From: Clostridia bacterium
Lineage (GTDB): Bacteria; Bacillota; Clostridia; Oscillospirales; Acutalibacteraceae
Length of the DNA: 53,156 nucleotides
Reading direction: 5' to 3'
Assembly (NCBI GenBank): GCA_017427315.1
Contig: JAFRTA010000267.1
Location: 1-53,156, forward strand
The position numbers and the translations under genes are program-made. Below, one piece after another: positions 10,835 to 37,008 of the stretch; within the stretch, counting starts at the first letter, position 1; the number at the start of each line of letters is the position of its first letter. The notes beneath the pieces are model-generated. The model worked only from the letters and a program-made list of their open reading frames with translations. It did not search any database and had not been told where the DNA came from.

Positions 10835-10850
10835 AAAGACTGCCTCCTTA

Positions 10851-11172: not shown

Positions 11173-11213
11173 TATACCAGAAAATAATATTTTCGGTGTA
11201 AGGGGGCTTTCCG

Positions 11214-11429
11214 GTGATCGTTTTTGACAAGCTATGGCAGACGATGAAACAAAAGAATATCTCCCAATACCAGCTCATCAAAACCTACGGCGTCAGCACC
11301 GGGCAGCTTGACCGGCTGCGGAAAAACGGCAACGTGAACACCTACACCCTGTCCCTTTTATGCGAGATCCTCGACTGTGAGCTTGCGGATATCGCGGAAT
11401 ATAAAAAAGACCGGAAGGAGTCCGAATGA
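11214..11429 (+). CDS. Small XRE/Cro-type helix-turn-helix transcriptional regulator (71 aa)
   Basis: GTG start after AAGGGGG. The HTH segment ISQYQLIKTYGVSTGQLDRLRKNGNVNTYTLSLLCEILDCELADI is typical of short XRE/HTH_26 proteins. Confidence 0.8.
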   Translation: MIVFDKLWQTMKQKNISQYQLIKTYGVSTGQLDRLRKNGNVNTYTLSLLCEILDCELADIAEYKKDRKESE

Positions 11430-11447
11430 ACGGACCTTCCGGTTTTT
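11411..11447. terminator. Hairpin terminator shared by the convergent genes
   Basis: CCGGAAGG ... CCTTCCGG (8-bp stem, 16-nt loop) followed by TTTTT; it overlaps the stop codon at 11427-11429. Confidence 0.6.
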
Positions 11448-11462
11448 ATTGAATCGTTTTAT

Positions 11463-20968: not shown

Positions 20969-20997
20969 TAGACATTTTAAAATTACCGTGATATAAT
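20969..20997 (+). promoter_or_regulatory. Promoter of tRNA-Ala with an extended -10
   Basis: TAGACA, 17 nt, (TG)A-TATAAT. The tRNA 5' end lies 13 nt downstream. Confidence 0.65.
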
Positions 20998-21009: not shown

Positions 21010-21085
21010 GGGGGCGTAGCTCAGCTGGGAGAGCGTACGGTTCGCATCCGTAAGGTCGAGAGTTCGATCCTCTTCGTCTCCACCA
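21010..21085 (+). tRNA. tRNA-Ala(CGC): tRNA-Ala, anticodon CGC
   Basis: Manual cloverleaf of 76 nt. Acceptor GGGGGCG/CGTCTCC with G3:U70. D stem GCTC/GAGC. Anticodon stem TACGG/CCGTA with loop TTCGCAT. T arm GAGAG-TTCGATC-CTCTT. A73 and an encoded CCA. Confidence 0.95.
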
Positions 21086-21088
21086 CAA
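21073..21088 (+). repeat. attL core (direct repeat TTCGTCTCCACCACAA)
   Basis: Identical 16-mer at 36593-36608; it covers tRNA nt 64-76 plus 3 nt. Confidence 0.9.
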
Positions 21089-21093
21089 CCATC

Positions 21094-21144
21094 AAATCCG
21101 AACCGATTCGTAACAAAGGATCTGTTCGGGTTTGTTTTTTATTT
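21094..21144 (+). terminator. Terminator-like hairpin supplied by the element, downstream of the restored tRNA
   Basis: AAATCCGAAC ... GTTCGGGTTT (10-bp stem with one T-G pair, 20-nt loop), then GTTTTTTATTTT. Confidence 0.5.
21096..21105. repeat. Element-end inverted repeat ATCCGAACCG (putative recombinase half-site)
   Basis: Reverse complement of CGGTTCGGAT at 36575-36584. The two lie 7 and 8 nt from the core respectively. Confidence 0.6.
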
Positions 21145-21169
21145 TGACGATTACCCGTATTATGAAAGA

Positions 21170-21204
21170 CAGCAGTGAGACGTACCCCACTGCTGATTTT
21201 TATT
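21170..21204 (+). terminator. Second plus-strand hairpin with a T-run at the element's left end
   Basis: CAGCAGTG / CACTGCTG 8-bp stem, then ATTTTTATTTT. Confidence 0.5.
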
Positions 21205-21423
21205 TTACGATGCCATTTTTGTGTCGTGCGGGACGTCAGATTGCTGTTTTTCTTTCCATTCCTTGAACTCCCGCTTTCCTTTTTCCGATTCGCAGTAAGC
21301 GACGATATCAGGCAGAATGCATCGCGCAAATTCTTTGAGCTGCTCTTTTGTTAATGTGCATTCCGCGCGCCGGTTGCTCATAATTCGAGCGAATTCTCTT
21401 TGTAAATATTTCAAAAATACCAT
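21205..21423 (-). CDS. Small hypothetical protein (72 aa) co-transcribed after the relaxase
   Basis: Strong RBS AAAGGAG 7 nt before the ATG, overlapping the relaxase stop. Charged, Cys-containing product; no family named. Confidence 0.65.
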   Translation of the reverse strand: MVFLKYLQREFARIMSNRRAECTLTKEQLKEFARCILPDIVAYCESEKGKREFKEWKEKQQSDVPHDTKMAS

Positions 21424-21435
21424 CCTGATACTCCT

Positions 21436-22893
21436 TTACATTTCTCCCCACATCGGGGAATTATTTGTTGTTTCCGCTTCGTCTTCATCGGAAGAATCTT
21501 CCGCCGCCGCGAGGATCAGTCCTGCGGCAAACCCGATCGCGGCTCCGACAGCGGCGCCGTTCGCGTCGGCTTCCATTCTTTTCCGGCGTTCCTCCTCGTC
21601 CTCGTCGCCGTCCGTCAGAGCGCCAAGCGCAAGTACACCGCCGACGCCAGCACCGACAACAGCGCCGAACCCACCGCCGTCGTTACCATGATCCGGATGA
21701 GCTGCCGCCGCAGGTTCTCCGCTGTTGATCTGATATCGTTTACGGTTTCGCGCAGCAGCTTCGAGCTGTCCGAGATAAACGTCTCTTGACTCCTCCCAGC
21801 CTGTGAGACGCTGTCCTGCAGGTTCGTCACCGTTTCCCGATTTGCCGCTGTCAGATTCCCGGCCGTCCGTTCCATATACCGCGCTTCGATATCCAATATC
21901 TGACTGACGTATTCCTGCAGTTCCTTCCGCGTCGCCAGCGCTTCGATCCGCCGGTACAGCGTCGGCTGAAAGGACGCCGCCTGCTTCAGCAGATTGAATT
22001 CCTCCGTCCTCTGACGCACCGGGATCGCGAAGACCTGCGGCTCGTACTCCTGATACTCGATCGCAGAAAGCGCGTCTTCGTTCTGCTGAACGAGATTTTC
22101 CAGCGCCGAATTGCGCTGCGAGCCGTTCTCTGATTTTGAATTCATTTTCAATATTCTCCTTCAAATATTTTTCGTCGTGCAGCTTATTGTCTCTGCACTT
22201 CATTCCGTTCGGACAGAGGAAAGTGATATTTTTCCGCTCGTCCGTCCACGTCATCATATAACCGAGACGTTCCATATTTTTGATAAACTCTTCCCGGCTG
22301 CCGCTGGTTTTCATCGCGGAATTGATCGCCGCCATGAGCTTGAATTTCCAGCTTTGTCCCTTCTGCGCGGTTCTGTATTCTCTCGACCCGAGATTGGTTG
22401 ACCGTTTCTGCGGATCATATTTCTGTAAAACAGAAAGACCATATTTCAAACACAGCTCGTCACTTTTCTGACGCAACTCCGACAGAAAAAATTTATTCGC
22501 GTGCAGCTTTCTGCCTGTGTCGAGATCGTAACTGTTCACGACAAGATGCGAATGCAGGTGCCCCGCGTCGAGATGCGTCGCCACGACGATCTCGCGGTTA
22601 CCGAACGCTTCCGCCAGTTCCGTTGCGATTTTGTGCGCCAGCTCCGGCGTAATATCTTCGTTCGGGGGGAAGGACTGTACATAATGAAAGAACCTTGCGC
22701 CTTGCTTATGTCCGAACAGATTCTGCGTCGCGAGGAAGGATTCGTTTGCAAATTCCGGCACGCAGTTGACTCCGTTCACGAACATCGTTTGTTCTTCCGA
22801 GGTCGTTTTGTCGGGGCGCATGCAGTAATCGAGCACGCCTTTCTGCGCGCTCGGCGACTGTTTTGACTCCGGAATATTCTTAACGATCGCCAT
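21436..22893 (-). CDS. MobA/VirD2-family relaxase (mobilization nuclease) with a low-complexity C-terminal half
   Basis: Start at MAIVKNIPES (ATG 22893), overlapping the mobC stop. Relaxase motif THLDAGHLHSHLVVN (HxDxxHxH type). The track ORF extends to a TTG at 22983. Confidence 0.85.
   Translation of the reverse strand: MAIVKNIPESKQSPSAQKGVLDYCMRPDKTTSEEQTMFVNGVNCVPEFANESFLATQNLFGHKQGARFFHYVQSFPPNEDITPELAHKIATELAEAFGNREIVVATHLDAGHLHSHLVVNSYDLDTGRKLHANKFFLSELRQKSDELCLKYGLSVLQKYDPQKRSTNLGSREYRTAQKGQSWKFKLMAAINSAMKTSGSREEFIKNMERLGYMMTWTDERKNITFLCPNGMKCRDNKLHDEKYLKENIENEFKIRERLAAQFGAGKSRSAERRRAFCDRVSGVRAAGLRDPGASEDGGIQSAEAGGVLSADAVPADRSAGDAEGTAGIRQSDIGYRSAVYGTDGRESDSGKSGNGDEPAGQRLTGWEESRDVYLGQLEAAARNRKRYQINSGEPAAAAHPDHGNDGGGFGAVVGAGVGGVLALGALTDGDEDEEERRKRMEADANGAAVGAAIGFAAGLILAAAEDSSDEDEAETTNNSPMWGEM
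21615..22145 (-). CDS. Nested alternative-frame ORF inside the relaxase gene (MobB-like accessory candidate: coiled coil plus a C-terminal TM helix)
   Basis: AAGGAG 10 nt upstream of the ATG at 22145. Its third codon positions are strongly G/C-biased, whereas the relaxase frame over the same stretch is not. The product ends in IMVTTAVGSALLSVLASAVYLRLAL. Confidence 0.5.
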   Translation of the reverse strand: MNSKSENGSQRNSALENLVQQNEDALSAIEYQEYEPQVFAIPVRQRTEEFNLLKQAASFQPTLYRRIEALATRKELQEYVSQILDIEARYMERTAGNLTAANRETVTNLQDSVSQAGRSQETFISDSSKLLRETVNDIRSTAENLRRQLIRIMVTTAVGSALLSVLASAVYLRLAL

Positions 22894-23197
22894 TGGGATC
22901 GCCTCCAAGCGCCGAAAGAATCTTTTTGTAGCAGTCGAGCGTTTCGGAAAGATCGACCGTTTTAATCCGTCCCTGATGCGCAAGCCGTGTGAGCTGATTC
23001 AGATTGTTTCCCTGACGGCGTAGTTCCTTGTTCGCGCTGCGCAGATCTTCGTTGACGATGATCTGTCCGTTCAGGCACATATCAAGAATGAATTTGCGCA
23101 GAGTCGGTGCGGCAGTTTCGATTTTTTTTTGATACAATCGCTCTTTTTCTTCTGCAGTGAGACGAATCGAAATCGTTTCCGTCTGTGTTCTCGGCAT
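22880..23197 (-). CDS. mobC: MobC-family relaxosome accessory protein
   Basis: Start MPRTQTETISIRLT after GAGGTG. RLTAEEKERL and GNNLNQLTRLAH motifs. Confidence 0.85.
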   Translation of the reverse strand: MPRTQTETISIRLTAEEKERLYQKKIETAAPTLRKFILDMCLNGQIIVNEDLRSANKELRRQGNNLNQLTRLAHQGRIKTVDLSETLDCYKKILSALGGDPNGDR

Positions 23198-23345
23198 ATA
23201 TAAATCACCTCTATTTTCTGAAAGTGGGTCCGGGCTTCCGCCCGGATCGGAGCAGCATGCTCCGATTTTTGCGCGATGGCGTTCGCTGACGAACGGCGGC
23301 GGACTGCCACGCGCTACGCTTGCCCCGGACAAGTCCGGGAATATA
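23198..23345. promoter_or_regulatory. Candidate oriT / promoter region upstream of mobC (cluster of inverted repeats)
   Basis: TCCGGG-N6-CCCGGA (23229-23246). ATCGGAGCA-GCA-TGCTCCGAT followed by a T-run (23246-23270). CGTTCG-CTGA-CGAACG (23280-23295). CCCGGAC-AA-GTCCGGG (23324-23339). No nick-site consensus recognised. Confidence 0.3.
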
Positions 23346-23776
23346 CGCAGGGATATGAATTACGGCTTTTTATACCGCAAAAAGGAGTATCGCAGATAAA
23401 CATCTGTGGCAAGCATCTTTAATAATCTCCCGCGCAAAACGGGCGACGTTTTCATTTTATTCACCTCACTTTTGAGGGCGTACCTTGCCCTGAAAACGGC
23501 CGATATTCCGCGGGACAGCACGTCGTTTTTTCTTTTTTATTCTTTTTTGCGGGTAGTTACGCCACCGCCGTTCAAACACGCGAAACAGGCGGTTTTATTT
23601 TGTCTTTGAACAATGCAATAATGCAAACGGCTTCCTGTCAACAATACAGACTTGTCACAGCAGAAAAGAACAACCTGCAATGTTGCAATCTTCTTGCTGA
23701 GATCCGCAATCGGCATATTCCCTCTTTCTGTTGTTATTTCTTTCTTTCTGAGTTTTGTTCTGTGGGTCTTGTTCCG

Positions 23777-24118
23777 CTATGGAGAAATTACACCGTCGGT
23801 AAGAATATCGCGTTCCGTCTTGAACAAGTCTTTCACATAGTACAGGTTGCTGGTTTGCGTTCCGTCTGTGCGGCGACGGGAAACAGTTTTTATCAGACCG
23901 CGGGAAGACAATGCTTTCAGGGCGGCGTCCACCGTTTTTCTGTCGATGCAGCATTCCGATGCGATCAACCGTCTGGACGGAAACGCGGAACGCTTCTCGT
24001 TGTCGCAATGCCGCAGCAGACAGCAGAGCACCGTAAATTCCCTCGGCTTCAGATGTAGGTCAAAAATTCGATTCGGCAGCATGAAAAAGTTTTTATGATG
24101 CGGTTTGTCGGGCTTCAT
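23777..24118 (-). CDS. Helix-turn-helix (HTH_36-like) protein common on small mobilizable elements
   Basis: Start MKPDKPHH after GGAGGTG. FFMLPNRIFDL...FPSRRLIASECCIDRKTVDAALKALSSRGLI. Confidence 0.75.
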   Translation of the reverse strand: MKPDKPHHKNFFMLPNRIFDLHLKPREFTVLCCLLRHCDNEKRSAFPSRRLIASECCIDRKTVDAALKALSSRGLIKTVSRRRTDGTQTSNLYYVKDLFKTERDILTDGVISP

Positions 24119-24475
24119 TTTTACACCTCCCTTCGGGTTTGATTGTTTGTGATTGTTCCCTCCCGTTCCTGATTTCATAATTTTCTTGATCCCGATAATC
24201 AGACACAAAAAAAGAGCGCAACAAAAACACACCGCAATGGACACGCCATTACGCTATGTGTTTTCGTTACGCTCTTAAGCTTCGATCAATCAAGCTCTGC
24301 GCCCGAAAAAAGAGAAAAAGAAAATATGTTAAATATGATCTGCCGGTTCAGCCGGAAGATATTTGTCAGGCACCAAACGTTTGTTTAGTATGGCTATAAT
24401 AACATAGTTCAGGGCATTTGTCAAGAGATAACAGAACAAATTTTCTAATGTTTGAAACGATGTTTGAAAATCTTG

Positions 24476-24672
24476 TCATATGATAAATATGATATCTCTG
24501 CCGTCGCAGAGCGTCTTGATCGATACGACGATAGGATTATGATTTTTTTCGTTCAGCATGTTATAAACCGTTGGCGGTGACACGCGTGCATATTAGCAAG
24601 GCTATTGATCTCCATTTTCCGTTGACTGCAGAGATTCAATATTCGAGCATCAACTGCCTTCTTTGTGTTCAT
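24476..24672 (-). pseudogene. Frameshifted small XRE-family HTH regulator, divergent from the cargo genes
   Basis: My translation gives MNTKKAVDARILNLCSQRKMEINSLANMHA, then the sense continues only after a frame shift near 24585 as VSPPTVYNMLNEKNHNPIVVSIKTLCDGRDIIFII*. The in-frame reading instead ends as CHRQRFITC*. Confidence 0.55.
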
Positions 24673-24903
24673 AACAATCTTCCTCGTCGATTTATCGTAA
24701 TAATAGCAAAAAATCCTGGGTATATTTGTAAACAATACAATATCGTAATATTTTTTTTAAAAATTATTGCAAATTTTTCTCAAATAAATATTATAGAGCA
24801 TTGCAAAAAAAATACTTCTATGATAACTTTAATATAGAATATTGACAAGCACTTCTAAATCATAAAACTATATCTAAGTAATTTTTTTTGAGGAGAATTT
24901 CTT

Positions 24904-27900
24904 ATGAACCGAATGAATAAAACACTTGCTATTATTCTTGCGATTATTTTGCTGGGATATTCAATGCATATGACATATACATTTGCCGGCTCAAATAATG
25001 TTGCTTGGAATAGTTCCTATGACCCAGTGACTGGAAACAGCGATACTGTTGATTTGCCTTCAGGTTGCACGAGCTATTACTATAATGAGAGTTTTTATTT
25101 AAACATTCAAGTTGGTGAAAATATTTTTATTCACGATGCTAATTTGTATGTTTATAAGGATGGTTCATTATATCATTCTGCAAATGCAAAAAAAGAGTTG
25201 GGCTTTTCAAATTATGTTCGATTTTGGGGACACCCATTAATGAATGCAGGTGTGGGCTCATATTATTTTTATTTTATATTAACTTATTCTACTGGATCGT
25301 TGTCAAATTCTACAAGTACTTATACCACAGGGAATTATTCTTTTGCCGTAGTCGATAGGACACCATCCATCAACGCTTCATCAACGAATGTATCGCTGAG
25401 TCTGGCTGGCACAAAAACAAAAACCGTTAGTTTTATTAAATCATGTGCTCTTAGTTATTCATACCATTATTCTTATAGCAAAAGCTCTTCCGCTTTTTCT
25501 TGTGAATGGATGGATTGGAATGGTGATTATGCGCCGCTCAAAATCACGGGAATAACAGCTTGCACAAATGAACCGATTACAATTTCTCTGAAAAGAGCTT
25601 CAGATAACGCCGTGATGGCAACAAAAACGATATATGTTACCGTCTCAACCGAGACATATAATATCAGGTATAATGCAAATGGCGGTACGGGAGCTCCATC
25701 TGATCAAACAAAAGTTTACAATGAGACACTGTCTCTATCTTCAGTCATTCCGGTTCGAACAGGGTACACTTTCCTTGGTTGGTCAACAAGCAGCGGTGCT
25801 TCTTCAGCAACGTATCTTCCTGGAGGATCATATACGAGCAACTACGGAACAACTTTGTATGCAGTATGGAAGCAAACAACGCTTTCATCTGGGGCTATTG
25901 TAACTACTCCAATTACATATAGCGGTCAACAGTATATCTATAAATTTACACCTTCAATCTCCGGATCATATGTTATTTATTCAACAGGAAATGCAGATAC
26001 AAAAGTATCTCTTTATAATTCAAGCGGTTCCGTGTTGTCAAATAACGATGATGGGGGCGAAAACAGAAACTTCAGACTGCAATATAACTTATCCTCAGGA
26101 TCAACTTACTATTATGGTGTTCAGTATTACAGTTCTTCTTCAACAGGTTCGATTTCGACGATTTTCGGACCTGTGTATGTAATACAATATAATGCTAATG
26201 GCGGAAGTGAAGCCCCGTCCCAACAGTCAAAAGATTATAATACAAGCCTTCTCCTGTCTTCTTTTTCTCCGGCTAAATTTTTTACAATTACATACAATGC
26301 CAACGGCGGCAATGTCAGTTCTGCAAGTAAGACCGTCAATTGCACGTTCAATAGCTGGAATACACAACAGAACGGCAGCGGAACAAGCTATAACGCTGGA
26401 GCAAACTATACCACCAACGCGAATGTGACACTTTACGCGCAGTGGATAAATCCGACGGCTGGTTCTCTTGCAACACCCACTCGTTCCGGTTATACTTTCG
26501 ACGGTTGGTATACATCGACAAGCGGCGGCAATCATGTGACAGATGCAGCCACTATTTCCGACAATACTACGCTTTACGCACACTGGACAAAAATTCCAGA
26601 AAAATACACTGTAACATATAACGCCAATGGCGGATCCGGTGCGCCTTCCCCGCAGACCAAGACCGAGGACGCTGCGCTGACACTGAGTAACACAAAACCG
26701 ACCAAGTCTTACACAATTACATACAATGCCAACGGCGGCAATGTCGGTTCTGCAAGTAAGACCGTCAATTGCACGTTCAATAGCTGGAATACACAACAGA
26801 ACGGCAGCGGAACCGCATATGATCCCGGTGACGAATGCACGGATGACGCGGATATCACGCTTTACGCACAATGGGAAAATCCGGTAGCCGGAGAACTGGA
26901 AGACCCTACTAAGGACGGGTATGTCTTTGACGGGTGGTATACTGCCGAAGACGGCGGAGAAGAGATAACTGAATCTTTTGAAGTAACAGAAGATATCACG
27001 GTTTATGCGCATTGGGCTAAAGAACTAAGTGAGTTTACTGTGAGCTATGACGCAAACGGAGGAGACGGAGCTCCCGAGGAACAGATTAAGACCGAAGGAA
27101 CGGATCTGACGCTCAGTGGGGACGTTCCCGTAAAGGAATATACGATTTCATATGATCTCACCGGCGGCAGCACGGAAAATGAAGAAAAAACCGTCGGCTG
27201 TACGTTCATCTGCTGGAACAGCGCATCGGACGGCAGTGGGACCGCATATGATCCCGGAGAAGAATATTCTGACGACGCGGAGGTCACGTTATACGCGCAG
27301 TGGAAAAATCCGGTAGCCGGGGTACTGGAAGACCCGATCAGGGATGGGTATGTATTTGATGGGTGGTATACTGCCGAGACCGGCGGAGAAGCTATAACGG
27401 AGGACTTTGAAGTATCCGGAGATATCACGGTATATGCGCACTGGATCGAAGAACCGGGTGAGTTTACCGTGAGCTTTGACGCCAACGGAGGAGACGAAGC
27501 TCCCGAGGATCAAATCAAGACCGAAGGAATGGATTTGACGCTCAGCGAAGATATTCCTGTGAAGGAGTATACTATTTTCTATGATCCCACCGGCGGCAGC
27601 ACGGAAAATGAAGAAAAAACCGTCGGATGCACGTTCCTCGATTGGAACTGTGAACCGGACGGCAGTGGGGCTGCATATGATCCTGGTGACGAATATACGG
27701 ATGACATGGATGTTACGCTTTACGCACAGTGGGGGAATCCGGTAGCCGGAGTATTGGAAGACCCGACCAGGGACGGGTATATTTTCGACGGGTGGTATAC
27801 TGCCGAAGACGGTGGAGAAGAGATAACGAAATCTTTTGAAGTAACAGAAAATATCACGGTTTATGCGAAGTGGGTCGCCGAAGAGGATCCGAGTTCCCTT

Positions 27901-28500: not shown

Positions 28501-28895
28501 TAGAATACGATGAAAGCGGGCGTGTTGTTTCTATTTCCGGCGAGGATTCGGGCGGATCGATTAATATTACGTACTCATACAACAACGACCGATATGACAG
28601 CGCTGAAACAGATTACTATGTTCAAACGGACGTCTCGGAATATCATTATAATGAAGAAGGTAAACTGATTCGAGTTGAACAGGAAGACGGAAATATCGAA
28701 TATGATTATGATGAACACGGAAATGTAACCGGGATCAAAAATGAGGTAATCGGTAATATGGAGCTCCAGATTGAGTACGAGCCTGCGACATATGCACAAT
28801 ATCAGGCGTTCCTTGCGATTATGAACTGCAATCTGGATTTTGTCACACCGAACGAAAAGATAACGTCTTTTTACCGGGGATTTCTGATGAATTAG
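28401..28895 (+). CDS. YD/RHS-like repeat tail displaced into another frame (probable frameshifted C-terminus of the 24904 gene)
   Basis: This frame is open from 28401 and reads ..LFNENGLLSKYTTEEDTSFSDFLIEYDESGRVVSISGED..YHYNEEGKLIRVEQEDGNIEYDYDEHGNVTGI. It has no RBS or ATG of its own, and the upstream frame already carries FDGDGRLLSASG / YEFNYDD. Confidence 0.55.
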   Translation, partial: CRRLYTTSTLLFNENGLLSKYTTEEDTSFSDFLIEYDESGRVVSISGEDSGGSINITYSYNNDRYDSAETDYYVQTDVSEYHYNEEGKLIRVEQEDGNIEYDYDEHGNVTGIKNEVIGNMELQIEYEPATYAQYQAFLAIMNCNLDFVTPNEKITSFYRGFLMN

Positions 28896-28962
28896 AGACG
28901 GCGTATCGTTAGTTTAATAGTACAAGAATAAACAAAGAATAATTAAATCGGAGGGTCAATTT

Positions 28963-31900
28963 ATGAATTTAAAAAGGATAACAGCAGTAATACTCACGTT
29001 TGTAATGATGTTTACTTGTATTCCTTTGACTGTCCATAATATGGATGCAAACGCGGCTGCAGTAAAACGATATACTGTTTTGGTGTTAGATACATCGAAT
29101 GAATCTAGCTTCAGCGATTCTGACGGGAATACGTTTTACACTGCACCGACTGCAATTGAATATGTAAAGCTATCTGCAACCAGATTCTTGTCAAATATTA
29201 GTAGGTCAACTGACGACAACTTTGTTGCAATTGTTTCGTTTAAGGATAACGCTCAAATTGTATCGGGTTTTTCGGATGACTATGAAGCATTAAAAGAAAA
29301 CATAGTAGATTTATATGCGTCAAGTGATGTGCGTGATATCTCTGCCGGTTTGGCAGAAGCACAATCGCTCATTAGTGAGATAAACGATGCCGATGCGGAC
29401 AAGAATGTTGTACTTTTTACAACAGGAATGACCAATAATGGCGAGTATAATTATGACGGAGTATTCAATGAGGATACGATCGGAAGTGATTGGTATAAAA
29501 TTAATACGGGTATATATCTATACGCATATGCAAATCACGCCTTTGAAGTTGCAGAAGAAATAAAAGAAGCGGGAACAACTCTGTATACTATCGGTTTATT
29601 TCAAACCATGGAGGATATTCCAGAACTTGGACAAAGTGTTGCAAAGCTCTTTCAATTAACTACTCGCCAATTGGCTTCTTCAGATGATTGTTACTTTCCT
29701 GTTGACGACCCGGACAAGCTTGAATTGACTTTTGGGGAAATTGCCGATGTGATTAATAAGATTTCTACTGTAACCGGAGAGCTTGGCGATTATGTAACAG
29801 TTGTAATCTTTAACTCTGATGAATATTATGATGCTGTGGAAATTAATAATAAAAAATATAAATTAGCTAAGGATTCATCTGTTACCGAGAAATGGGTTAA
29901 ATCAAACAAGGGAAGGTACGTAAAAGCGGTTTTAGCTAATGATGAAGTCTTAAGCATCGTAGCATATCTGACGACCAATATAGACAACAATGCTTTCAGT
30001 CATAATAAGAATAGTTTTTTTAGCAGGTTCTTTAGTGGGGAATTGCAATATGCTCTAACTCCAAACGGTGAAATTGTATTGCAAGAGAGACAATCTGACG
30101 GAACATATAAAACTTTAAGTATAAAAGAAAAAGAAAAACGAGAGAAAGAACTTAAGTATGAAATAAGCGATGATAAATTTAAAGAATTATTAGATTGGTG
30201 TTCCGAATTTTATAATGGAGTTAATAAAAACCAATTTAACCAAAAACTTCTGAAAAAAAAGCGAAATGAGTCTTGGGGCGGGAGTTGCTTTGGGGTAAGC
30301 ACGACCATGGCATTAAGCTTTAAAGGTGCTGTAAACCTTTCTGATATTTTTGGTGCTGGAGAAACATATTTTCAACTAGATACAGTGAATTGGCCTGTTA
30401 ATAACCAAGATTTTAGAGATTTAATTAATTATTATCAGTTGGCTCAATATGTAAATGCCTGGCAACATTACGATTTGACTGACAAAGGTGGTTTAATCCA
30501 ACAGAACCAAGAGACGAAAAACCGGGTTATTTCCGCAATGATAGACTACGCGCTGCAGTGTGATGCAACAGGTGAACCGTTTGTAATCTGTATGTCATAT
30601 TCGCATGATTCCGATCCCAATCAAAACGGAAATACCACAAGAGAGTCTGCAGGTCATGCTATAGTCGGTGTTGGGGTGGTATCTACTAATGAAAACGCGA
30701 CTGTTATCAGAATAGTTGACCCTAATTATAGACAGTATAATAATATGACATTGTCAAAGGATGATGCAACTGACAATTATTCAATTAGTTTTGAGCTCAA
30801 CTATACTGCTGATAGAAATTATGACTTCGATTCAATTAATTTTGTTTCTCTTGAGGAACTTCGTGTCGTTGATTATCACGGAGATTTATACTCTGAGAGA
30901 TATAATATTCCTACAAGCACTTTCATATTCGGTGTTAACGAGGAAATAACGATAATCGATAAAGATACCGGCCATAGATTTGTTTATCGGAAAGGTGAAA
31001 CCTCCGGTAATATGACCGTATATGATTTTTACAGATATTATTCTGATACAGAAGCGTCAGAAGGCGGCGAAATCGGATTTGAGCTTGAGCTCGGAGACAA
31101 TTACGAAATAATAACTGACGGCGAAATAGACCTGACAATAGGAAATGCGGAGGGCTTTGCCGGTATAGATGTGGTCAACGGGAATCATATTGATCTGGAT
31201 CTTGAAAAAGGTTTTGAAATTACCGGCGATAATATACAGTATGATATTTTTGTCGATCTTGATAATAGTGAAAATCTTATCAATGTGTCTGGCTGCGGTC
31301 GCGAAAAGATTTATGTTGAGGAAACGGATTCTTCTGTCGTTGTTACCGGTGATGATCTGTATATAGATTCTTGCGATTATTTATACAACGAAAAGATAAT
31401 TGAGAATGAGATCGATTCCGATGGACGGGAATTTGAATTTGGAATCGTTGAAGATCATGTAGGAGTGCTCAGAAAAATTGCGATTAATCCGGCTGTACTC
31501 ACCGTCTCTTCAACAGGGTCTGAGCCTGGTGAAGAAATTGTTTTGGCAGTTTCGATATCCGATAATCCCGGCATCAATACTTTTTCTTTGGGCTTCGACT
31601 ATGATGAATCTGTTCTTCAACTTACCAATGTTGAGTCGGTATCTGATTTGGGCGGACAATTCACCTATTCAAAAAAAGCCGTCTGGCTGAACAGTTCGGA
31701 CACGGATTATAACGGCGATATACTCAAATTATACTTTAAAGTGTTGCCTGAAGCCGTTTCGGGGGATGCAAAAGTAACGCTGACATATAACGCCGGCGAT
31801 ATTTCCAACTACAATGAGGATGATATCTTCTTTGAAGTTCAACCGGGCGTCGTTTCGATTCAGGAAAAGCAGACGATTCCCGTGACCACGGAAGCTCCCA

Positions 31901-34900
31901 CGACCGAAGCCCCGACTACAGAAGCCCCGACTACAGAAGCCCCGACGTCGGAGCCCGCGTGGACAGAGATCGGTCCTGTCGGTGATGTCAATCAGGACGG
32001 AAAAATCAATTCAATGGATGCGAGACTGACCTTGCGTTTCGCCGCAAAACAGCAGACCGCTTCCGGGATGGAAAAACTCCTCGCAGACGCGAACGGCGAT
32101 AAGCTGGTACAGGCAAAGGATGCTCGTCTGATTCTGAGATACGCCGCCAAACTTGATAAAGCAGGTGAGAACGGTAATATTATTTTGTCCACGATCAGAA
32201 AGGCAGATAACGGTGAAACCGATCCGTCAGCGGGCAGCGAACCGGAAACGACTTCGACTGAGCCGTCACAGGCTCCGACAACAGCGCCTGCAACACAGAT
32301 GACGACAGAACCTGTCCCGGAGAAGCCTGCCGTTTATTCCGAGATAACCCCGGAAGATAAAGCAAGTATTAAAGAACTCGCGTTTGATATGTGGCTCTTT
32401 AATCCCTATTTGACAGAAGAATACGTGAATGATGAATCGGATGCATTTTCGTTTGATAGTACCGCCGATAACGCAATGTCGCAGGCAATGATATTACTGA
32501 ATCCCAATACTTACGCGTTATTTAATCGTTATTATTCTGATTCAGCGGATGAGCTATACGATTTTGCCGATCCTTCTGAACGATTTGATATGTGTGTGAG
32601 AATGTCAGGAGAGAACGTGGATAATCTCTTGCGTGATTTATTCGGAATAGAGCCTGATCATGATATCGATAATGAGATTTGTTATTATAAAGACGGTAAT
32701 TATTATATGTCTGTTTCACTTGAAGGCACAGACAGCTTTGACTTTTTTGAGATAGACGATATTTCAAAAAATCAAGACAATTCTTTTGACATTACATTGC
32801 ATCTCTATTCGGTAGATCCGGGTGCCGGGAATGTTCGAGACGAGCACGTAGAGTTTAATATCCGTGCCGGAATGATAGAATCCTCAGGTCAAAGGAATTT
32901 GCGTATAGAAAAACTGCAGTTCTATAAAACAAAGGAAGAGAAAAGCACTCCCGATGTTTCCGATAATTACCACACAAGATATAAGGGCCGTGAATACCAC
33001 ATTCCCCAAATCGCTCGGCAGGGATCGAATTTTGAACGCATTAACCGCGAAATCTACGAAAAGTATTATACGAACGGCGCAGAATCTGCTCTGAGCAATC
33101 TTGAAATAGGAATTGATCCTTCCGTGGTGTATATCAATTATGAATGGACCGTGTTTGACAGTATTCTGTCTCTTTGTGTCTACAGCCAAACGGATGCGGC
33201 GAGCGCGCGGTTTTATGATGTATACAATGTCGGAGAGATGAGAGGAGACGCCTGCGCGGACTCTTATGTCATGAGCCTGTTCGATTTGTCGGAAGATGAA
33301 TTTTACAAAGCAACAAAGTCTGCAATGGAAAAAAAGTTTTATGATGAGTATGGAGAAAAACCTTTCAGTGACGACTTTGCGGATATCTGGAACGGCGCAT
33401 TAAAAGATACGCTTGCGGATGAAAATGTACAAAAAGTTGTTCCGCATATCAACAGCGATAATGAATTGTGTGCGATTGCATATATTTATTCTATCGGCGG
33501 CGCAGAAGGGTATTATTACGATATCAATATTTCCGAGATTATTTCATCCGATTTGCACGATGATGTGCAGGAAGCTGAAACGCACAAAAAACCGGGCTTC
33601 AATCTGATACGATATGAGGATGCACTGTTGGGTAATCGCGAGTACAAACTTAATGAAATCGGTCTTTTACAAGAAATAGATTTTTACGCAAACGAGGATA
33701 TTGGTTCATATACCATTACCTTTGTATATGACAGTGAAGGACGTTTGCTGGAGGCGAAGAATTCAAAAGACGACTTTCATGAAGGCGTTGTGCATACATG
33801 TAAATACGATATAACAGGTCGGTTGATCCAAGAAGGCATTCCCGGACCGAGCGAATCATGGATTGTCAAATCATACACTTATAATGCAGAAGGACAAAGG
33901 GATAGAGAAATGTGGGAATATTCTTTTGGAGAAATGACAGAGTATAACTTCACAAAGAATTATTACCATATTTATTCCGAAGGCGAGGAAGAAAATATTA
34001 CGGATACGCTTGTCTTAGAAGATGGAGAACAGTCAACAGAGGCGCTTAACGAAACCTTCGACGCCAAAGGGCGCATGTTGCGAGGGTATTATTATGATGG
34101 TATCTTCTGTAGTTTCAATTATCACGAAACGGAACCTCTTTCATTGCGAGATGTCATTGTTGCAGAAGACGGGGTGGAAATACCCCCAGATTCCGAGGTT
34201 TTGTTTTATGATAATGCTGGATTGCTGGTTGCCACACTGCCTGTGGGACAAATTGACCCGCCTATTCAGAAGGATGTTGACGGGACCATTCTCGGTATTG
34301 GAGACAATATCACGATGTACAATATACTTCCATCGATTTCCACAGAAAACTTTATTGAGCCGACAAATAAAGATTTTGAGGAATTGGGTACAGAGTTTTC
34401 TTATGAATCGCTTCTTGCAGATTTAAACCTGACATGGACTGGTTATGCATATTCGCCGTACAGTTATATTATCAATTATGACCATGCTGAAACAACCTCT
34501 GCAACGGTAAGAGAAAGACTGTTCTTCATTACTTACTCTATGCCTTATATTCGATATTTCGGAGAGCCGGAACGTGTGACATATCCAGAAAATGACGATC
34601 CTTTTGATTATTTGCCGGGATCATTTCATGTATATCTGAAGTATTCCGAAGAAAAGATCAGCTGGCTTGCAAAGAATTTTTTGAACACAGAAAGTTTTTC
34701 TCCGAATGACTTTATTGGTGATATTTCATATTGCGCCTATAAAGACGGTTATTTCTATTTTATTGATGAAGGCTATGACATGGAATGTGACTTGATGTCA
34801 AAAATATCAAGTATAGAGAAATTAGACGACGGACGATATTCCATGCAAATCGAATATATGATTAACGATTCTGGTAATCAATCTCCGGCATCAGGAAACG

Positions 34901-34986
34901 GAACTTTGGTTGCCGCCTTGAAACTGATTGACGGGAAAAGGGTGTGGTCTATCTACAGCTATAAAGCTGAGATTATCCCCCTGTAA
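28963..34986 (+). CDS. Giant (2007 aa) secreted multidomain protein with a vWA-like domain, a papain-like Cys/His domain, a cohesin-like module, a TTEAP linker, a dockerin, and a long C-terminal region with YD-like repeats
   Basis: RBS GGAGGG. Signal peptide ending NMDANA. VLVLDTSNES.. vWA-like. WGGSCFGVS (Cys442) and SAGHAIVGVG (His565). Cohesin-like aa ~840-968 (GEEIVLAVSISDNPGINTFSLGFDYDESVLQL...GDILKLYFKV...AKVTLTY). GDVNQDGKINSMDARLTLRFAA / DANGDKLVQAKDARLILRYAA. FVYDSEGRLLEA, YDITGRLIQE, YTYNAEGQRD. Confidence 0.85.
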   Translation: MNLKRITAVILTFVMMFTCIPLTVHNMDANAAAVKRYTVLVLDTSNESSFSDSDGNTFYTAPTAIEYVKLSATRFLSNISRSTDDNFVAIVSFKDNAQIVSGFSDDYEALKENIVDLYASSDVRDISAGLAEAQSLISEINDADADKNVVLFTTGMTNNGEYNYDGVFNEDTIGSDWYKINTGIYLYAYANHAFEVAEEIKEAGTTLYTIGLFQTMEDIPELGQSVAKLFQLTTRQLASSDDCYFPVDDPDKLELTFGEIADVINKISTVTGELGDYVTVVIFNSDEYYDAVEINNKKYKLAKDSSVTEKWVKSNKGRYVKAVLANDEVLSIVAYLTTNIDNNAFSHNKNSFFSRFFSGELQYALTPNGEIVLQERQSDGTYKTLSIKEKEKREKELKYEISDDKFKELLDWCSEFYNGVNKNQFNQKLLKKKRNESWGGSCFGVSTTMALSFKGAVNLSDIFGAGETYFQLDTVNWPVNNQDFRDLINYYQLAQYVNAWQHYDLTDKGGLIQQNQETKNRVISAMIDYALQCDATGEPFVICMSYSHDSDPNQNGNTTRESAGHAIVGVGVVSTNENATVIRIVDPNYRQYNNMTLSKDDATDNYSISFELNYTADRNYDFDSINFVSLEELRVVDYHGDLYSERYNIPTSTFIFGVNEEITIIDKDTGHRFVYRKGETSGNMTVYDFYRYYSDTEASEGGEIGFELELGDNYEIITDGEIDLTIGNAEGFAGIDVVNGNHIDLDLEKGFEITGDNIQYDIFVDLDNSENLINVSGCGREKIYVEETDSSVVVTGDDLYIDSCDYLYNEKIIENEIDSDGREFEFGIVEDHVGVLRKIAINPAVLTVSSTGSEPGEEIVLAVSISDNPGINTFSLGFDYDESVLQLTNVESVSDLGGQFTYSKKAVWLNSSDTDYNGDILKLYFKVLPEAVSGDAKVTLTYNAGDISNYNEDDIFFEVQPGVVSIQEKQTIPVTTEAPTTEAPTTEAPTTEAPTSEPAWTEIGPVGDVNQDGKINSMDARLTLRFAAKQQTASGMEKLLADANGDKLVQAKDARLILRYAAKLDKAGENGNIILSTIRKADNGETDPSAGSEPETTSTEPSQAPTTAPATQMTTEPVPEKPAVYSEITPEDKASIKELAFDMWLFNPYLTEEYVNDESDAFSFDSTADNAMSQAMILLNPNTYALFNRYYSDSADELYDFADPSERFDMCVRMSGENVDNLLRDLFGIEPDHDIDNEICYYKDGNYYMSVSLEGTDSFDFFEIDDISKNQDNSFDITLHLYSVDPGAGNVRDEHVEFNIRAGMIESSGQRNLRIEKLQFYKTKEEKSTPDVSDNYHTRYKGREYHIPQIARQGSNFERINREIYEKYYTNGAESALSNLEIGIDPSVVYINYEWTVFDSILSLCVYSQTDAASARFYDVYNVGEMRGDACADSYVMSLFDLSEDEFYKATKSAMEKKFYDEYGEKPFSDDFADIWNGALKDTLADENVQKVVPHINSDNELCAIAYIYSIGGAEGYYYDINISEIISSDLHDDVQEAETHKKPGFNLIRYEDALLGNREYKLNEIGLLQEIDFYANEDIGSYTITFVYDSEGRLLEAKNSKDDFHEGVVHTCKYDITGRLIQEGIPGPSESWIVKSYTYNAEGQRDREMWEYSFGEMTEYNFTKNYYHIYSEGEEENITDTLVLEDGEQSTEALNETFDAKGRMLRGYYYDGIFCSFNYHETEPLSLRDVIVAEDGVEIPPDSEVLFYDNAGLLVATLPVGQIDPPIQKDVDGTILGIGDNITMYNILPSISTENFIEPTNKDFEELGTEFSYESLLADLNLTWTGYAYSPYSYIINYDHAETTSATVRERLFFITYSMPYIRYFGEPERVTYPENDDPFDYLPGSFHVYLKYSEEKISWLAKNFLNTESFSPNDFIGDISYCAYKDGYFYFIDEGYDMECDLMSKISSIEKLDDGRYSMQIEYMINDSGNQSPASGNGTLVAALKLIDGKRVWSIYSYKAEIIPL
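31885..31959 (+). repeat. 15-nt tandem repeat encoding (TTEAP)n linker
   Basis: ACCACGGAAGCTCCC ACGACCGAAGCCCCG ACTACAGAAGCCCCG ACTACAGAAGCCCCG ACGTCGGAGCCCGCG. Confidence 0.9.
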
Positions 34987-35067
34987 TGCAACTCGGTCTG
35001 AAACAAGGCTCCAATATATCCAAAAGATTATCTCTTTATGGGGTATAATTTATGACAGCTTTTTCTG

Positions 35068-35096
35068 TTGACATTTTTGTGAAAGTATTTTATACT
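35068..35096 (+). promoter_or_regulatory. Near-consensus promoter of the recombinase gene
   Basis: TTGACA, 17 nt, TATACT. RBS GAGGTG before the ATG at 35133. Confidence 0.65.
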
Positions 35097-35132
35097 TACA
35101 TCCAGAAAATTTGTTCTGCTTGAGGTGCAAAA

Positions 35133-36983
35133 ATGAATGCAGTAATCTATGCGCGCTATTCTTCCGACAATCAGCGGGAAGAATCCATCGAAGGGCAGAT
35201 TCGGGAAAACACGGCGTTTGCCGAAAAGAACGGGATGACAATCGTCGGTCACTATATAGACCGCGCGTATTCGGCGAGAACGGACAAACGACCCGAATTC
35301 CAGCGGATGATCCGTGACAGCGCGAAGAAAAATTTTGACGTGGTTATCGTCTGGAAATTAGACCGTTTCGCCCGTAACCGTTATGATTCCGCAAAATACA
35401 AAGCCGCGCTGAAAAAGAACGATGTAAAGGTCGTTTCCGCGACGGAGGCGATCTCCGAAGGCGCCGAAGGAATCATTCTCGAAGCGGTTTTGGAGGGATA
35501 TGCGGAGTATTATTCTGTTGATCTGTCGGAAAAAATATTGCGCGGTATGACGGAAAACGCTCTGAAATGTAAATACAACGGCAGTCACGTCCCGTTGGGC
35601 TTTCGCATAGACGAGGATCGGTTTTATCAGATTGACGAATCGAAAGCGCCTATCGTCAGAGAGATTTATGAGCGTTACGCAAGCGGAGAGACGGGAAAAT
35701 CCATCATTACGGATCTGAACGACCGCGGTCTGAAAACGACGACAGGCAAACCTTTTGTCGCCAACAGTCTGCACAGCATTCTGACAAACCGGATGTATAT
35801 CGGCGAATATCATCACGGCGCTGTAGTTAAGCCGGGCGGGATACCCGCCATTGTGTCCCGGGAGCTGTTTGACCGGGTCGCCGCACGAATGGAAAAGAAC
35901 AAGCGCGGTTCGGGCCATAATAAGGGCTATGAGCGGTATATCCTTTCCACAAAACTGTTTTGCGGAAAGTGCAGGTCCATGATGGTCGGTGAAAGCGCGC
36001 AAAAGAAAAACGGCATGATTTACCGCTATTATAAATGCGCTTCTGCGAAACGTAAAAAAGGCTGCGACATGAGAGCCGTTCGCAAGGACTGGATCGAGGC
36101 TCTGGTGATAAATAAACTGGTTTCAATATTGAACGATCGCGACACGCTGAATAAAATGGCGGACGCAGTATTGGCGCTTTTCGACGAAGAAAACGCCGCT
36201 GTCCCCGCATTGGAAGCGCAGCTGAAAGAAACGCATAAGGCAATCGACAATCTGATGAAAGCCATTGAGTCGGGAATCATTACACGGACGACGAAATCCC
36301 GGTTGGAAGAACTGGAAAAAGAAGAAGAACGGATTCTGCAATGTATAGAAACGGAGAAAGCAAAGCAGCCGATGCTTTCAAAAGAAATGATCCTGTTTAC
36401 GTTGGAAAAATTTCGAAATCTTGACCTGTCTGTCGGAAAAAACCGGGAACGGCTGGTTGACGGTTTTGTCAAATGCATCATACTTGAAGATGACAGAATC
36501 ATCATAACGACAACTTTCCGGGACGAACCTGTCACAATAATAACGAAAGAAGAAATTGAAACGATTGCTGATCACGGTTCGGATGTCAGCGGTTCGTCTC
36601 CACCACAAAAATCGGCATCCTTTCGGATGCCGATTTTTGTATGGTGGAGCAAGAGGATCGAACCGTCGAGCGAAACGCTCCGGTGGAGCGTTTCGGGAGC
36701 GGCCCGGCAGAAGAGGACAGGAAGGGGCATCCTATCGGATGTCGATTTTTGTATGGTGGAGCAAGAGGATCGAACCGTCGAGCGAAACGCTCCGGTGGAG
36801 CGTTTTGGGAGCGGCCCGGCAGAAGAGGTCATACGCCCTCATGCTGCTTGCGGGCGTCCTGTTCTCAACGGACCTGCCGAAGCGTATTTTCAAAAAAAGA
36901 TTCGATTGCTTTGCGTCAAGGCTTGCCGCTGCCGCCGTGCTGATCCTGCTTTCGGTCCTGATGCTCATCGGCGACAGCTATAA
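35133..36983 (+). CDS. Large serine recombinase; the conserved part ends near nt 36590, and the ORF then reads through attR into flanking DNA
   Basis: N-terminal resolvase domain AVIYARYSSDNQ...VIVWKLDRFARN. Recombinase domain and zinc-ribbon (CGKCRSMM...YYKCASAKRKKGC). Coiled coil. No stop codon before the junction. Confidence 0.9.
   Translation: MNAVIYARYSSDNQREESIEGQIRENTAFAEKNGMTIVGHYIDRAYSARTDKRPEFQRMIRDSAKKNFDVVIVWKLDRFARNRYDSAKYKAALKKNDVKVVSATEAISEGAEGIILEAVLEGYAEYYSVDLSEKILRGMTENALKCKYNGSHVPLGFRIDEDRFYQIDESKAPIVREIYERYASGETGKSIITDLNDRGLKTTTGKPFVANSLHSILTNRMYIGEYHHGAVVKPGGIPAIVSRELFDRVAARMEKNKRGSGHNKGYERYILSTKLFCGKCRSMMVGESAQKKNGMIYRYYKCASAKRKKGCDMRAVRKDWIEALVINKLVSILNDRDTLNKMADAVLALFDEENAAVPALEAQLKETHKAIDNLMKAIESGIITRTTKSRLEELEKEEERILQCIETEKAKQPMLSKEMILFTLEKFRNLDLSVGKNRERLVDGFVKCIILEDDRIIITTTFRDEPVTIITKEEIETIADHGSDVSGSSPPQKSASFRMPIFVWWSKRIEPSSETLRWSVSGAARQKRTGRGILSDVDFCMVEQEDRTVERNAPVERFGSGPAEEVIRPHAACGRPVLNGPAEAYFQKKIRLLCVKACRCRRADPAFGPDAHRRQL
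36575..36584. repeat. Element-end inverted repeat CGGTTCGGAT (partner of 21096-21105)
   Basis: Lies 8 nt from the attR core, inside the recombinase ORF. Confidence 0.6.
36593..36608 (+). repeat. attR core (direct repeat TTCGTCTCCACCACAA), the displaced tRNA 3' tail
   Basis: Identical to 21073-21088. Confidence 0.9.
36611..36638. terminator. Probable original tRNA-Ala terminator (bidirectional form)
   Basis: Perfect 10-bp stem ATCGGCATCC-TTTC-GGATGCCGAT, flanked by AAAAA and TTTTT. Confidence 0.75.
36614..36828. repeat. Tandem duplication, 2 x 112 bp, each unit carrying an inverted tRNA-3'-end-like segment and an 11-bp-stem hairpin
   Basis: TGGTGGAGCAAGAGGATCGAACCG occurs at 36642 and 36754. 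Hairpin CGAAACGCTCC-GGT-GGAGCGTTTCG. The second unit is slightly degenerate. Confidence 0.85.
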
Positions 36984-37008
36984 TCCGTTTTTGTATTTCA
37001 GATTTTGA
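36829..37008 (+). pseudogene. 3' remnant (~59 codons) of an MBOAT-family O-acyltransferase gene
   Basis: SYALMLLAGVLFSTDLPKRIFKKRFDCFASRLAAAAVLILLSVLMLIGDSYNPFLYFRF* resembles the conserved C-terminus of MBOAT/AlgI-like proteins as I recall it. The stop lies 9 nt before the DHHW gene, the usual MBOAT partner. The upstream ~400 codons are absent. Confidence 0.5.

Follow-up and report, generated by a model that had tools for sequence, protein, structure and literature searches.

We report here on a putative integrative mobilizable element (IME) of 15.5 kb (positions 21089-36608), situated at the 3' end of a tRNA-Ala(CGC) gene in a Clostridia bacterium of the Acutalibacteraceae, and on the large serine recombinase (LSR) that it encodes. 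The window, by which we mean the whole stretch of DNA that was analysed, comprises 53,156 nt (GenBank assembly GCA_017427315.1, contig JAFRTA010000267.1) and is chromosomal, with parAB and gidAB among the genes to the right. Its tRNA-Ala(CGC) gene (21010-21085, forward strand) has its own promoter at 20969-20997 and is the sole tRNA in the region according to both ARAGORN and Rfam. Attachment (att) sites are called attL and attR at the left and right ends of the integrated element, attP in the circular form (arms P and P') and attB in the empty host site (arms B and B'). The features that bear on integration are:

21010-21085, forward: intact tRNA-Ala(CGC), the B arm of attL, with the T-loop box AGTTCGATC at 21061-21069
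21073-21088, forward: left copy of the 16-bp identity, the attL core (tRNA nt 64-76 plus CAA)
21089-21178, forward: P' arm of attP, with ATCCGAACCG at 21096-21105, a hairpin, and the severed in-frame native recombinase tail PSNPNRFVTKDLFGFVFYFDDYPYYERQQ with its stop codon
35068-35096, forward: sigma-70-like promoter TTGACA-17-TATACT upstream of the recombinase gene, matching at 11 of 12 positions
35133-36983, forward: LSR open reading frame (ORF) in its integrated state, 616 amino acids (aa), with Resolvase, Recombinase and Zn_ribbon_recom domains
36575-36584, forward: P arm motif CGGTTCGGAT, a T-loop mimic that encodes the conserved residues G-S-D
36593-36608, forward: right copy of the 16-bp identity, the attR core, equal to recombinase codons S-S-P-P-Q (residues 488-492)
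36606-36639, forward: B' arm, a hairpin of the form A5-stem-loop-stem-T5 that originally terminated tRNA-Ala and has been displaced

A first-pass annotation, made from the sequence alone, had proposed an element bounded by a 16-nt direct repeat, and this boundary stands. The 16-mer TTCGTCTCCACCACAA has exactly two occurrences in the 53 kb, one at 21073-21088 and the other at 36593-36608; when up to two mismatches are tolerated, the expected number of matches is 0.01, and two or more were obtained in 0 of 100 shuffles. The 10-mer CGGTTCGGAT is found as an exact match only at 36575-36584 on the forward strand, with its complement ATCCGAACCG at 21096-21105. The same annotation had conceded that the repeat could be a matter of chance if the 16-mer and the 10-mers were common elsewhere, but neither occurs at any other place in the window. 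Each copy of the 16-mer is followed by a hairpin with a T-run, the left one encoded by the element (21093-21134, -21.3 kcal/mol, z = -4.8) and the right one lying in the interval 36606-36650 (-23.6 kcal/mol, z = -6.7), which bears out the proposal that the tail of the tRNA gene and its terminator had been displaced to the right end. The right-hand hairpin, judged from its sequence, could be active in both directions. An intact tDNA and a displaced tDNA fragment thus flank an integrase-bearing island, which is the signature by which Islander defines tDNA-targeting islands. Joining the two ends gives a predicted attP junction of ...GTCAGCGG-TTCGTCTCCACCACAA-CCATCAAATCC... (attP sequence CACGGTTCGGATGTCAGCGGTTCGTCTCCACCACAACCATCAAATCCGAACCG), and the predicted empty site is tRNA-Ala followed by AAAATCGGCATCC (attB sequence …GTTCGATCCTCTTCGTCTCCACCACAAAAATCGGCATCC).

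The recombinase has the attributes of an LSR, namely a catalytic domain, a Recombinase domain and zinc ribbon with coiled coil, and short att sites. Its Resolvase domain (PF00239, residues 3-144, E = 1.6e-28) contains the motif VIYARYSSDNQ, in which S10/S11 are invariant among 24 relatives; this is followed by the Recombinase domain (PF07508, E = 5.6e-19) and the zinc ribbon (PF13408, E = 1.8e-13), with four invariant cysteines, and an AlphaFold 2 model of the homologue P0079 places long helices after the ribbon, at residues 317-410. No DUF4368 match was found in the window LSR with Pfam, and neither NCBIfam equivalog applies, CcrB scoring 160.5 bits against a cut-off of 900 and XisF 112 against 375. 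A PDB sequence search with the window LSR returned matches to the catalytic domain only (TP901-1, 3bvp, E = 2e-14).

The LSR ORF reads through the attR core, so that the P arm and the core are coding sequence. The first-pass annotation had missed this read-through: residues 1-492 (to position 36608) are conserved, while the last 124 aa are junk, encoded by host DNA beyond attR. Indeed, the top 120 homologues align over only about 80% of the window ORF; they share a C-terminal '(G/S)SD(I/V/L)....(A/S/G)(S/P/A)P' and then diverge, with total lengths of 488-658 aa. Many of their tails hold runs of F, the residue that the T-runs of terminators encode.

To place these features in a wider context, we examined relatives of the LSR in a genome scan with one genome per GTDB species, in which at least 591 loci encode relatives and 81 were examined. 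Among their hosts are Oscillospiraceae, Faecalibacterium, Ruminococcus, Acutalibacteraceae and Christensenellaceae. The 3' end of the LSR gene reads NGTTCGRNN-N18-CCA in 73 of the 81, the spacing being exactly 18 in 72, and GGTTCGGAT is the commonest arm before N18-CCA. Several of the exceptions have …GGTGCAGT… at this 3' end and lack CCA; for at least one, L055, the CCA is not encoded in the adjoining tRNA gene either. On the 3' side of the CCA, the relatives have a hairpin and T-run, i.e. a tRNA terminator. Both ends were in view at 13 loci, where the LSR end lies 2.3-15.5 kb beyond the tRNA gene; the targets are tRNA-Ala(cgc) (twice), Glu, four Leu isoacceptors, Met, Arg and Val (four times). 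At attL these 13 loci have a complete tRNA followed by N10-ATCCGAACC(C)-loop-GGGTTCGGAT-Tn. The relatives thus insert at a fixed position of tRNA genes, and this fixed position, together with the missing DUF4368, sets the window LSR apart from the low-specificity Tn4451/TndX-type class with its many targets. The identity between attP and attB is only 6-10 bp in the 13 loci, with the common minimum NCACCA (tRNA nt 71-76). The 16-bp identity of the window element, on which the first-pass annotation had remarked, lies at the long extreme and is not required.

Some of these relatives are very compact. In Faecalibacterium, mini-elements of 2.3-2.6 kb lie at tRNA-Val genes (L078 8875-11467, L080 8940-11467 and L081 1019-3371), and a further one measures 4.5 kb (L051 6996-11467). 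They include one in the complete genome of F. prausnitzii UT1, there is little besides the LSR gene between attL and attR, and their arms GGTTCGAGT/ACTCGAACC are identical to the target T-loop. In this they resemble insertion sequences driven by a serine integrase.

The same architecture is found in viruses. At least 587 IMG/VR contigs encode relatives of the LSR, and of 80 that were fetched, 63 have the P-arm pattern, 30 of these in a P-core-P' arrangement with N10 spacing and 31 with a terminator-type B'. Altogether, about 80-90% of the examined genome and viral loci show the tRNA-end architecture. Two viral loci of the attP form, L132 and L106, were scanned with PHROGs and carry an endolysin and a diversity-generating-retroelement (DGR) kind of reverse transcriptase on one side of the integrase and a DNA helicase on the other, which is the usual place of int and attP in a temperate phage genome. 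P-core-P' arrangements occur in genome contigs too (L015, L045, L071 and L083-85); the phage contigs are cleaner evidence for an intact attP than L015 or L045. We rejected attP-form contigs as excised circles in general, since L015 and L045 are flanked by ordinary chromosomal genes, and likewise the small 'Bacteriophage sp.' scaffolds in GenBank, which have integrated-type junctions. Relatives with the same architecture, including phage genomes in which attP is intact, lend independent support to the boundaries and gene content of the window element and to its reconstructed attP.

The Roseburia phage Shimadzu provides the closest described case. Its LSR is 44% identical to that of the window over residues 1-465, its genome has GGTTCAGCT-N31-AAGCCGAACC with the same arm spacing, and its integrase ends in a homologous tail, …KPNPVYFFKKVFAVVVNFTRK and a stop codon. 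In the Shimadzu record (LR596903.1 24577-26240, our locus L169) the integrase coding sequence is annotated as a pseudogene that is partial on either side. This flag probably stems from an ORF that spans the attachment site, and the same annotation fault likely hits many genes of the LSR family. The authors who described the phage placed its integration site within int and noted that two forms of the integrase differ in the last ~20-22 aa; they detected excision by polymerase chain reaction (PCR) across attB, observed a second copy inserted in a tRNA gene, and suggested that the tail difference might affect stability, citing Broussard 2013 (10.1101/575076).

The reconstructed attP of the family has the form GGTTCGGAT-N15-NCACCA-N10-ATCCGAACC, and in the circular form of the window element this reads GGTTCGGAT-N15-CCACCA-N10-ATCCGAACC. 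A distance of 31 nt separates the arms, with the dyad centred on the first base of the hexamer. The attP of ~50 bp with inverted 10-mers that had been reconstructed from the window alone is thereby confirmed, as the exact 10-mers are found only at the predicted places and the attP sites of relatives and phages agree with it. In the tRNA gene, 10 nt separate the T-loop box GGTTCGANT from the hexamer NCACCA, which puts the box 5 bp closer than the attP arm at 15 nt. In the model of Rutherford and Van Duyne, attP is reportedly ~50 bp and attB ~40 bp in length, and the motif read by the zinc ribbon lies 5 bp farther from the centre in attP than in attB; the T-loop offset is the one that this model gives for a zinc ribbon that reads attB and attP. 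Moreover, the arms co-vary: GGTTCGAGT goes with ACTCGAACC in the Faecalibacterium tRNA-Val elements, where the target T-loop is also GGTTCGAGT, GATTCGG goes with CCGAATC in L022, and TGTTCGGAT goes with ATCCGAACA in phages. Some phage P arms read TGTTCGAAT-AAGCC-CTCTTCGTCTCCACCA, like the 3' end of the window tRNA-Ala with five extra bases. These sequences lead us to infer that three of the four half-sites (P, P' and B) present the T-loop box to the LSR for recognition, and it is somewhat more likely than not that the zinc-ribbon domain is what reads it. For the fourth half-site, we had considered ATCGGCATC in the window as a recognised B' motif; it was dropped, as a T-loop-like motif shows no enrichment at any offset in the B' half of 69 unique sites, and the 6/9 match in the window is probably due to chance.

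The part of the recombinase that the element loses on integration can be reconstructed from the P' arm. The native tail of the window LSR reads QPSNPNRFVTKDLFGFVFYFDDYPYYERQQ to the stop codon, ~29 aa, and its sequence QPSNPNRFVTKDLFGFVFYF... aligns with the tails from 30 distinct P' sequences and with that of Shimadzu. In the attP state most of these 30 sequences keep the LSR frame open over 21-31 codons, with a median of 25 codons compared to 10 and 18.5 in the other frames, and the tail peptide is conserved as xxxNPNx(F/P)(F/I)(V/I)x(K/G)xxFGFVhxh(E/D), where h is a hydrophobic residue. Among 14 phage attP sites, pairwise differences in tail codons 4-18 number 188/79/466 at codon positions 1/2/3 (625/435/1225 in the upstream coding sequence), and comprise 323 synonymous and 223 nonsynonymous codon differences. 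These counts show that the tail is translated and that purifying selection acts on it. Tails of the integrated type (n = 97) have a random look, with a median of 20 aa, an interquartile range of 5-47 and a full range of 0-862. Integration therefore swaps the last ~25 aa of the integrase, here for 124 aa of host-encoded junk.

The remaining genes of the element, of which the relaxase and MobC coordinates are those of the longest ORFs, are:

21205-21423, reverse: small ORF (72 aa if the longest ORF is taken) of a conserved, unnamed family of ~60 aa that is often the first gene inside attL
21436-22983, reverse: MobA/VirD2-type relaxase (PF03432, E = 2.6e-34)
22880-23332, reverse: NikA-like/MobC relaxase accessory protein (Pfam; alignment to a relative begins at 23197)
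23777-24244, reverse: HTH_36 DNA-binding protein (Pfam), also present in the L083 backbone
24904-28500, forward: cargo, 1198-aa protein with 10 Listeria-Bacteroides repeats and a dockerin (Pfam), in low-GC DNA
28497-28895, forward: cargo, 132-aa ORF with an RHS repeat (Pfam)
28963-34986, forward: cargo, 2007-aa protein with VWA and dockerin domains (Pfam), in low-GC DNA

The true start of the relaxase is probably near 22893. Pfam matches bear out the serine recombinase, relaxase, MobC and HTH_36 genes of the first-pass annotation, and its recombinase promoter (TTGACA-17-TATACT) was found as described. Its decayed XRE regulator was not recovered: there is no Pfam match, and no tblastn match with the XRE protein of a related element. 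An intact ORF is absent from the ~650 bp at 24245-24903, between the HTH_36 gene and the cargo. The large ORFs scanned with Pfam and NCBIfam gave no match to a type IV secretion system (T4SS) or coupling-protein family, and the element is therefore mobilizable rather than conjugative, as had been argued. With its own integrase and flanking att sites, and a relaxase in the absence of T4SS and coupling-protein genes, it conforms to what is called an IME. The 72-aa ORF has no Pfam or NCBIfam match; a profile search with its family returned more than 7800 relatives of ~60 aa, all unnamed and devoid of a Pfam domain, with the consensus IPxHEIExLARCLLPDIxAFFESEEGQREFxEWK. Members also lie at L006 820-939, L026 790-909, L070 2890-3021 and L076 1010-1099. 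A possible TnpW-like identity of the 72-aa ORF could not be confirmed; that the ~60-aa protein is an accessory protein or the recombination directionality factor (RDF) of these elements is speculation.

The cargo stands out by its GC content, which is 35-46% at 24-27 and 28-35 kb compared to 55-63% over most of the flanking chromosome, so that the AT-rich cargo of ~10 kb reported earlier is real; the backbone genes (LSR and Mob) have 48-53%. It encodes two very large putative surface proteins with dockerins in a host of ~58% GC, which has dockerin proteins of its own, e.g. at 17644-18825. A cohesin match in the 2007-aa protein is below threshold (21.5 bits against a cut-off of 24.1). Going by these domains, the element may carry cellulosome-type or adhesin components. 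The order of the backbone genes is the same in L083, a related element (relaxase 40%, MobC 61%, HTH_36 44% and LSR 65% identity), which has an intact XRE/S24 repressor and cargo unlike that of the window element.

Taken together, the region 21089-36608 is very likely an IME whose own LSR inserted it at the 3' end of tRNA-Ala(CGC). In the integrated state attL consists of the tRNA and P', with the element supplying the last bases of the tRNA and a new terminator, such that the P' hairpin and T-run (21093-21134) now terminate tRNA-Ala; attR consists of the LSR gene and B', with the LSR gene fused to the old tRNA terminator. Integration thus keeps the tRNA intact and exchanges the C-terminal tail of the integrase for host-encoded junk. 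The crossover point would be a central dinucleotide close to tRNA positions 71-72. The two arms of attP would mimic the T-loop box (GGTTCGANT) of the tRNA, and the enzyme would probably read this box, the acceptor end and the CCA, needing little downstream. After excision, the relaxase and NikA/MobC protein would nick the origin of transfer (oriT), and a co-resident conjugative element would lend its mating pore. More broadly, and only tentatively, a little short of an even chance in our judgement, we propose that 'tRNA-end' serine integrases form a large clade, undescribed as such, in temperate phages and IMEs of gut Clostridia, in which the zinc ribbon reads the T-loop box, the DNA string best conserved among all tRNA genes, at the usual attB offset, the attP arms mimic this box, a few acceptor-stem bases that double as the final conserved codons of the integrase set the specificity for a given tRNA, and the tail swap acts as a state-dependent switch.

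Several observations weigh against this interpretation. The first group concerns recognition. No conserved motif was found in the B' half of attB at any offset among 69 distinct sites, which have only an A-rich stretch and then the terminator; attB recognition therefore appears strongly one-sided, and attB is far less symmetric than textbook LSR sites. Such one-sided recognition may explain the spread of the family among many tRNA genes. The dyad centre falls on a single nucleotide and not between two, which bears on the exact crossover dinucleotide. An AlphaFold model of a homologue in the attP form is confident for the catalytic, recombinase, ribbon and coiled-coil parts; residues 476-515, which include the P-arm-encoded part and the tail, have a predicted local distance difference test (pLDDT) score below 50. 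The second group concerns mobility. The integrated LSR lacks its native tail, which bears on the ability to excise, no RDF was identified in the element, and oriT was not located, the region upstream of mobC having only two weak inverted repeats. The empty site and the circle junction, for which a search had been recommended, were not found: a look-up of the neighbour gene gave only two contigs, both of which fit the occupied arrangement (one as in the window, the other breaking 242 bp upstream of the gene), and two metagenome scans, with a degenerate pattern over the attL, attR, attP and attB junctions and with the 30-nt P arm, gave no match. Finally, attP-type junctions lie beside ordinary genes in two genome contigs, next to sigma factor and DUF4349 genes in L015 (11455-11540) and next to Fe-ADH and aldo-keto reductase genes in L045 (1640-1740). 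These may be scars of tandem arrays, in which a newer element used tRNA plus P' as its attB, or remnants of decayed neighbours.

One alternative is compatible with integration by the LSR and not opposed to it. It holds that a ~5-kb LSR/Mob backbone of 48-53% GC later gained the ~10-kb low-GC surface-protein block as a separate event, and we regard it as a serious possibility that falls somewhat below an even prospect. The GC content of 35-46% across most of 24-35 kb points to such a composite origin, as do relatives with the same backbone that carry quite different cargo between HTH_36/XRE and the LSR; however, the cargo of these relatives occupies the same position, and within the element we saw neither a further set of repeats nor another recombinase. 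It is unlikely, though conceivable, that the element integrated as proposed and has since become a fossil, its integrated recombinase having lost the native tail, with no recognisable RDF and with its cargo remodelled. The missing empty site and circle, the 124-aa junk tail of the LSR, the stretch at 24245-24903 devoid of an intact ORF, and the scars on its right side (112-bp repeats and an apparent truncated gene) are what one would expect of a fossil. Against this, neither the 16-bp repeats nor the two 10-bp arms show any mismatch, the LSR, relaxase and MobC are encoded by unbroken ORFs whose domains match over their full length, Shimadzu, a related prophage, can excise from an integrated state of this kind, and the rarity of the host in the searched collections explains the missing empty site. 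That the repeats and arms arose by chance or as a tRNA-like by-product, with the recombinase acting elsewhere, is effectively refuted: T-loop-like strings are common near tRNA genes and an inverted tRNA-3'-end-like fragment lies just right of attR, but the 16-mer expectation is 0.01, the exact 10-mer is found at the two predicted sites only, and the fixed-spacing architecture recurs in 73/81 genome and 63/80 viral loci.

The flanks of the element have features of their own. Directly to the right of attR lies a 112-bp tandem repeat (36614-36828, 1.9 copies, 97% matches), each unit of which contains a hairpin that resembles a terminator and a minus-strand fragment that resembles a tRNA 3' end, GGTTCGATCCTCTTGCTCCACCA. 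The acceptor part of this fragment is 2 nt short, and neither ARAGORN nor Rfam calls a tRNA there; two phage loci with the same tRNA-Ala end type (L145 and L153) have a convergent tRNA-like T-arm at the same place. The fragment may be what is left of a convergent tRNA gene, or a scar from a previous recombination event. Beyond it, the frame at 36829-37008 ends in …LMLIGDSYNPFLYFRF and a stop codon directly upstream of a DHHW gene (37018-38061). This frame has no Pfam match; we take it to resemble the last ~59 codons of an MBOAT (AlgI/DltB-type) gene that is missing its 5' part, which suggests a deletion junction at ~36828/36829 beside an integration hotspot. On the far left of the window, a second low-GC stretch (5060-12764, 42-50% GC) encodes a 1924-aa BspA-type leucine-rich-repeat and C-type lectin protein and a Schlafen/AlbA_2-HATPase_c_4 protein, and may be another acquired island.

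Landing in tRNA genes is classically the habit of tyrosine integrases; this clade shows a serine integrase using them, and one recombinase family serves phages, IMEs and mini-elements of 2.3-2.6 kb in dominant gut Firmicutes. Its fixed architecture, with a T-loop box at attB spacing, suggests how the enzyme works. There are also practical consequences. Integrase genes of this type end in variable junk or receive pseudogene flags, as in Shimadzu, and island finders that are limited to tyrosine integrases will overlook these elements. For engineering, serine integrases have the advantage of working independently of host factors, and tRNA genes offer ready-made, conserved landing pads; if our interpretation is correct, retargeting between tRNA genes would need few base changes, and the tail swap could affect the stability or directionality of the integrase depending on its integration state.

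How does the element compare with known systems? The LSRs of Listeria A118 (LI Int), Bxb1, phiC31 and TP901-1 share its Resolvase, Recombinase and zinc-ribbon architecture, although the likeness in sequence found by the PDB search is limited to the catalytic domain. To our knowledge, the targets of canonical LSRs are protein-coding or intergenic and not tRNA genes, and their attP lies outside the int ORF. Attachment sites inside an element gene, with integration altering the product, occur in the archaeal virus SSV1, which targets a tRNA gene, and in the mycobacteriophage BPs. Both rely on tyrosine recombinases, SSV1 splitting int into two large parts and BPs truncating its repressor, whereas in the window family the swap affects a serine integrase and is limited to its last ~25 aa. 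The authors of the Shimadzu study draw the comparison with Broussard 2013 themselves (10.1101/575076). Shimadzu shares with the window element its LSR, the spacing of the attP arms, a homologous tail and a site inside int; it differs in being a temperate siphophage and not a relaxase-bearing IME, and its P arm lacks CCA at the corresponding position. The tail swap has thus already been reported for one phage, and a search of that text found no T-loop mimicry, 5-bp offset or family-wide targeting of tRNA 3' ends (10.1101/575076).

Among mobilizable elements, the clostridial Tn4451/Tn4453 (TnpX and TnpZ) likewise combine a single LSR with a mobilization protein, but TnpX has low specificity with 2-bp identical sequences (PMC5704250), its clade usually has DUF4368, and it does not target tRNA genes. 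The same review places serine-recombinase IMEs in protein-coding genes or describes them as of low specificity (PMC5704250). The Dehalococcoides ssrA islands, with the CcrB-like DsiB, are similar in having a serine recombinase at a single-copy structured-RNA gene with ssrA direct repeats at both boundaries, and differ in their tmRNA target, a co-encoded small DsiA, an integrase near attL and a host of another phylum (PMC3146451); the window LSR, at 160 bits, scores far below the CcrB cut-off of 900. The islands and IMEs that tyrosine integrases place at tRNA genes (Islander, NBU1-type) have the same signature of an intact and a displaced tDNA, the tRNA being restored by the element (PMC4383910), yet enzyme and mechanism are unrelated and the identity is much shorter in the window clade (6-10 bp). 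Islander restricts 'integrase' to tyrosine recombinases, which leaves the window element outside its definition, and its 2014 paper states that serine integrases are not known to target tRNA genes (PMC4383910); the LSR survey of Durrant et al. makes no mention of tRNA. An LSR at a tRNA 3' end, which the first-pass annotation had called unusual, is therefore contrary to that published statement, although within this clade it is common in the databases. In full-text literature searches we found no description of family-wide targeting of tRNA 3' ends, of T-loop mimicry with a 5-bp offset or of the use of such an integrase by an IME; TIGER may catalogue such elements. By this comparison, the window element is a new, IME-type member of a widespread and barely described clade of LSRs that integrate at tRNA 3' ends.

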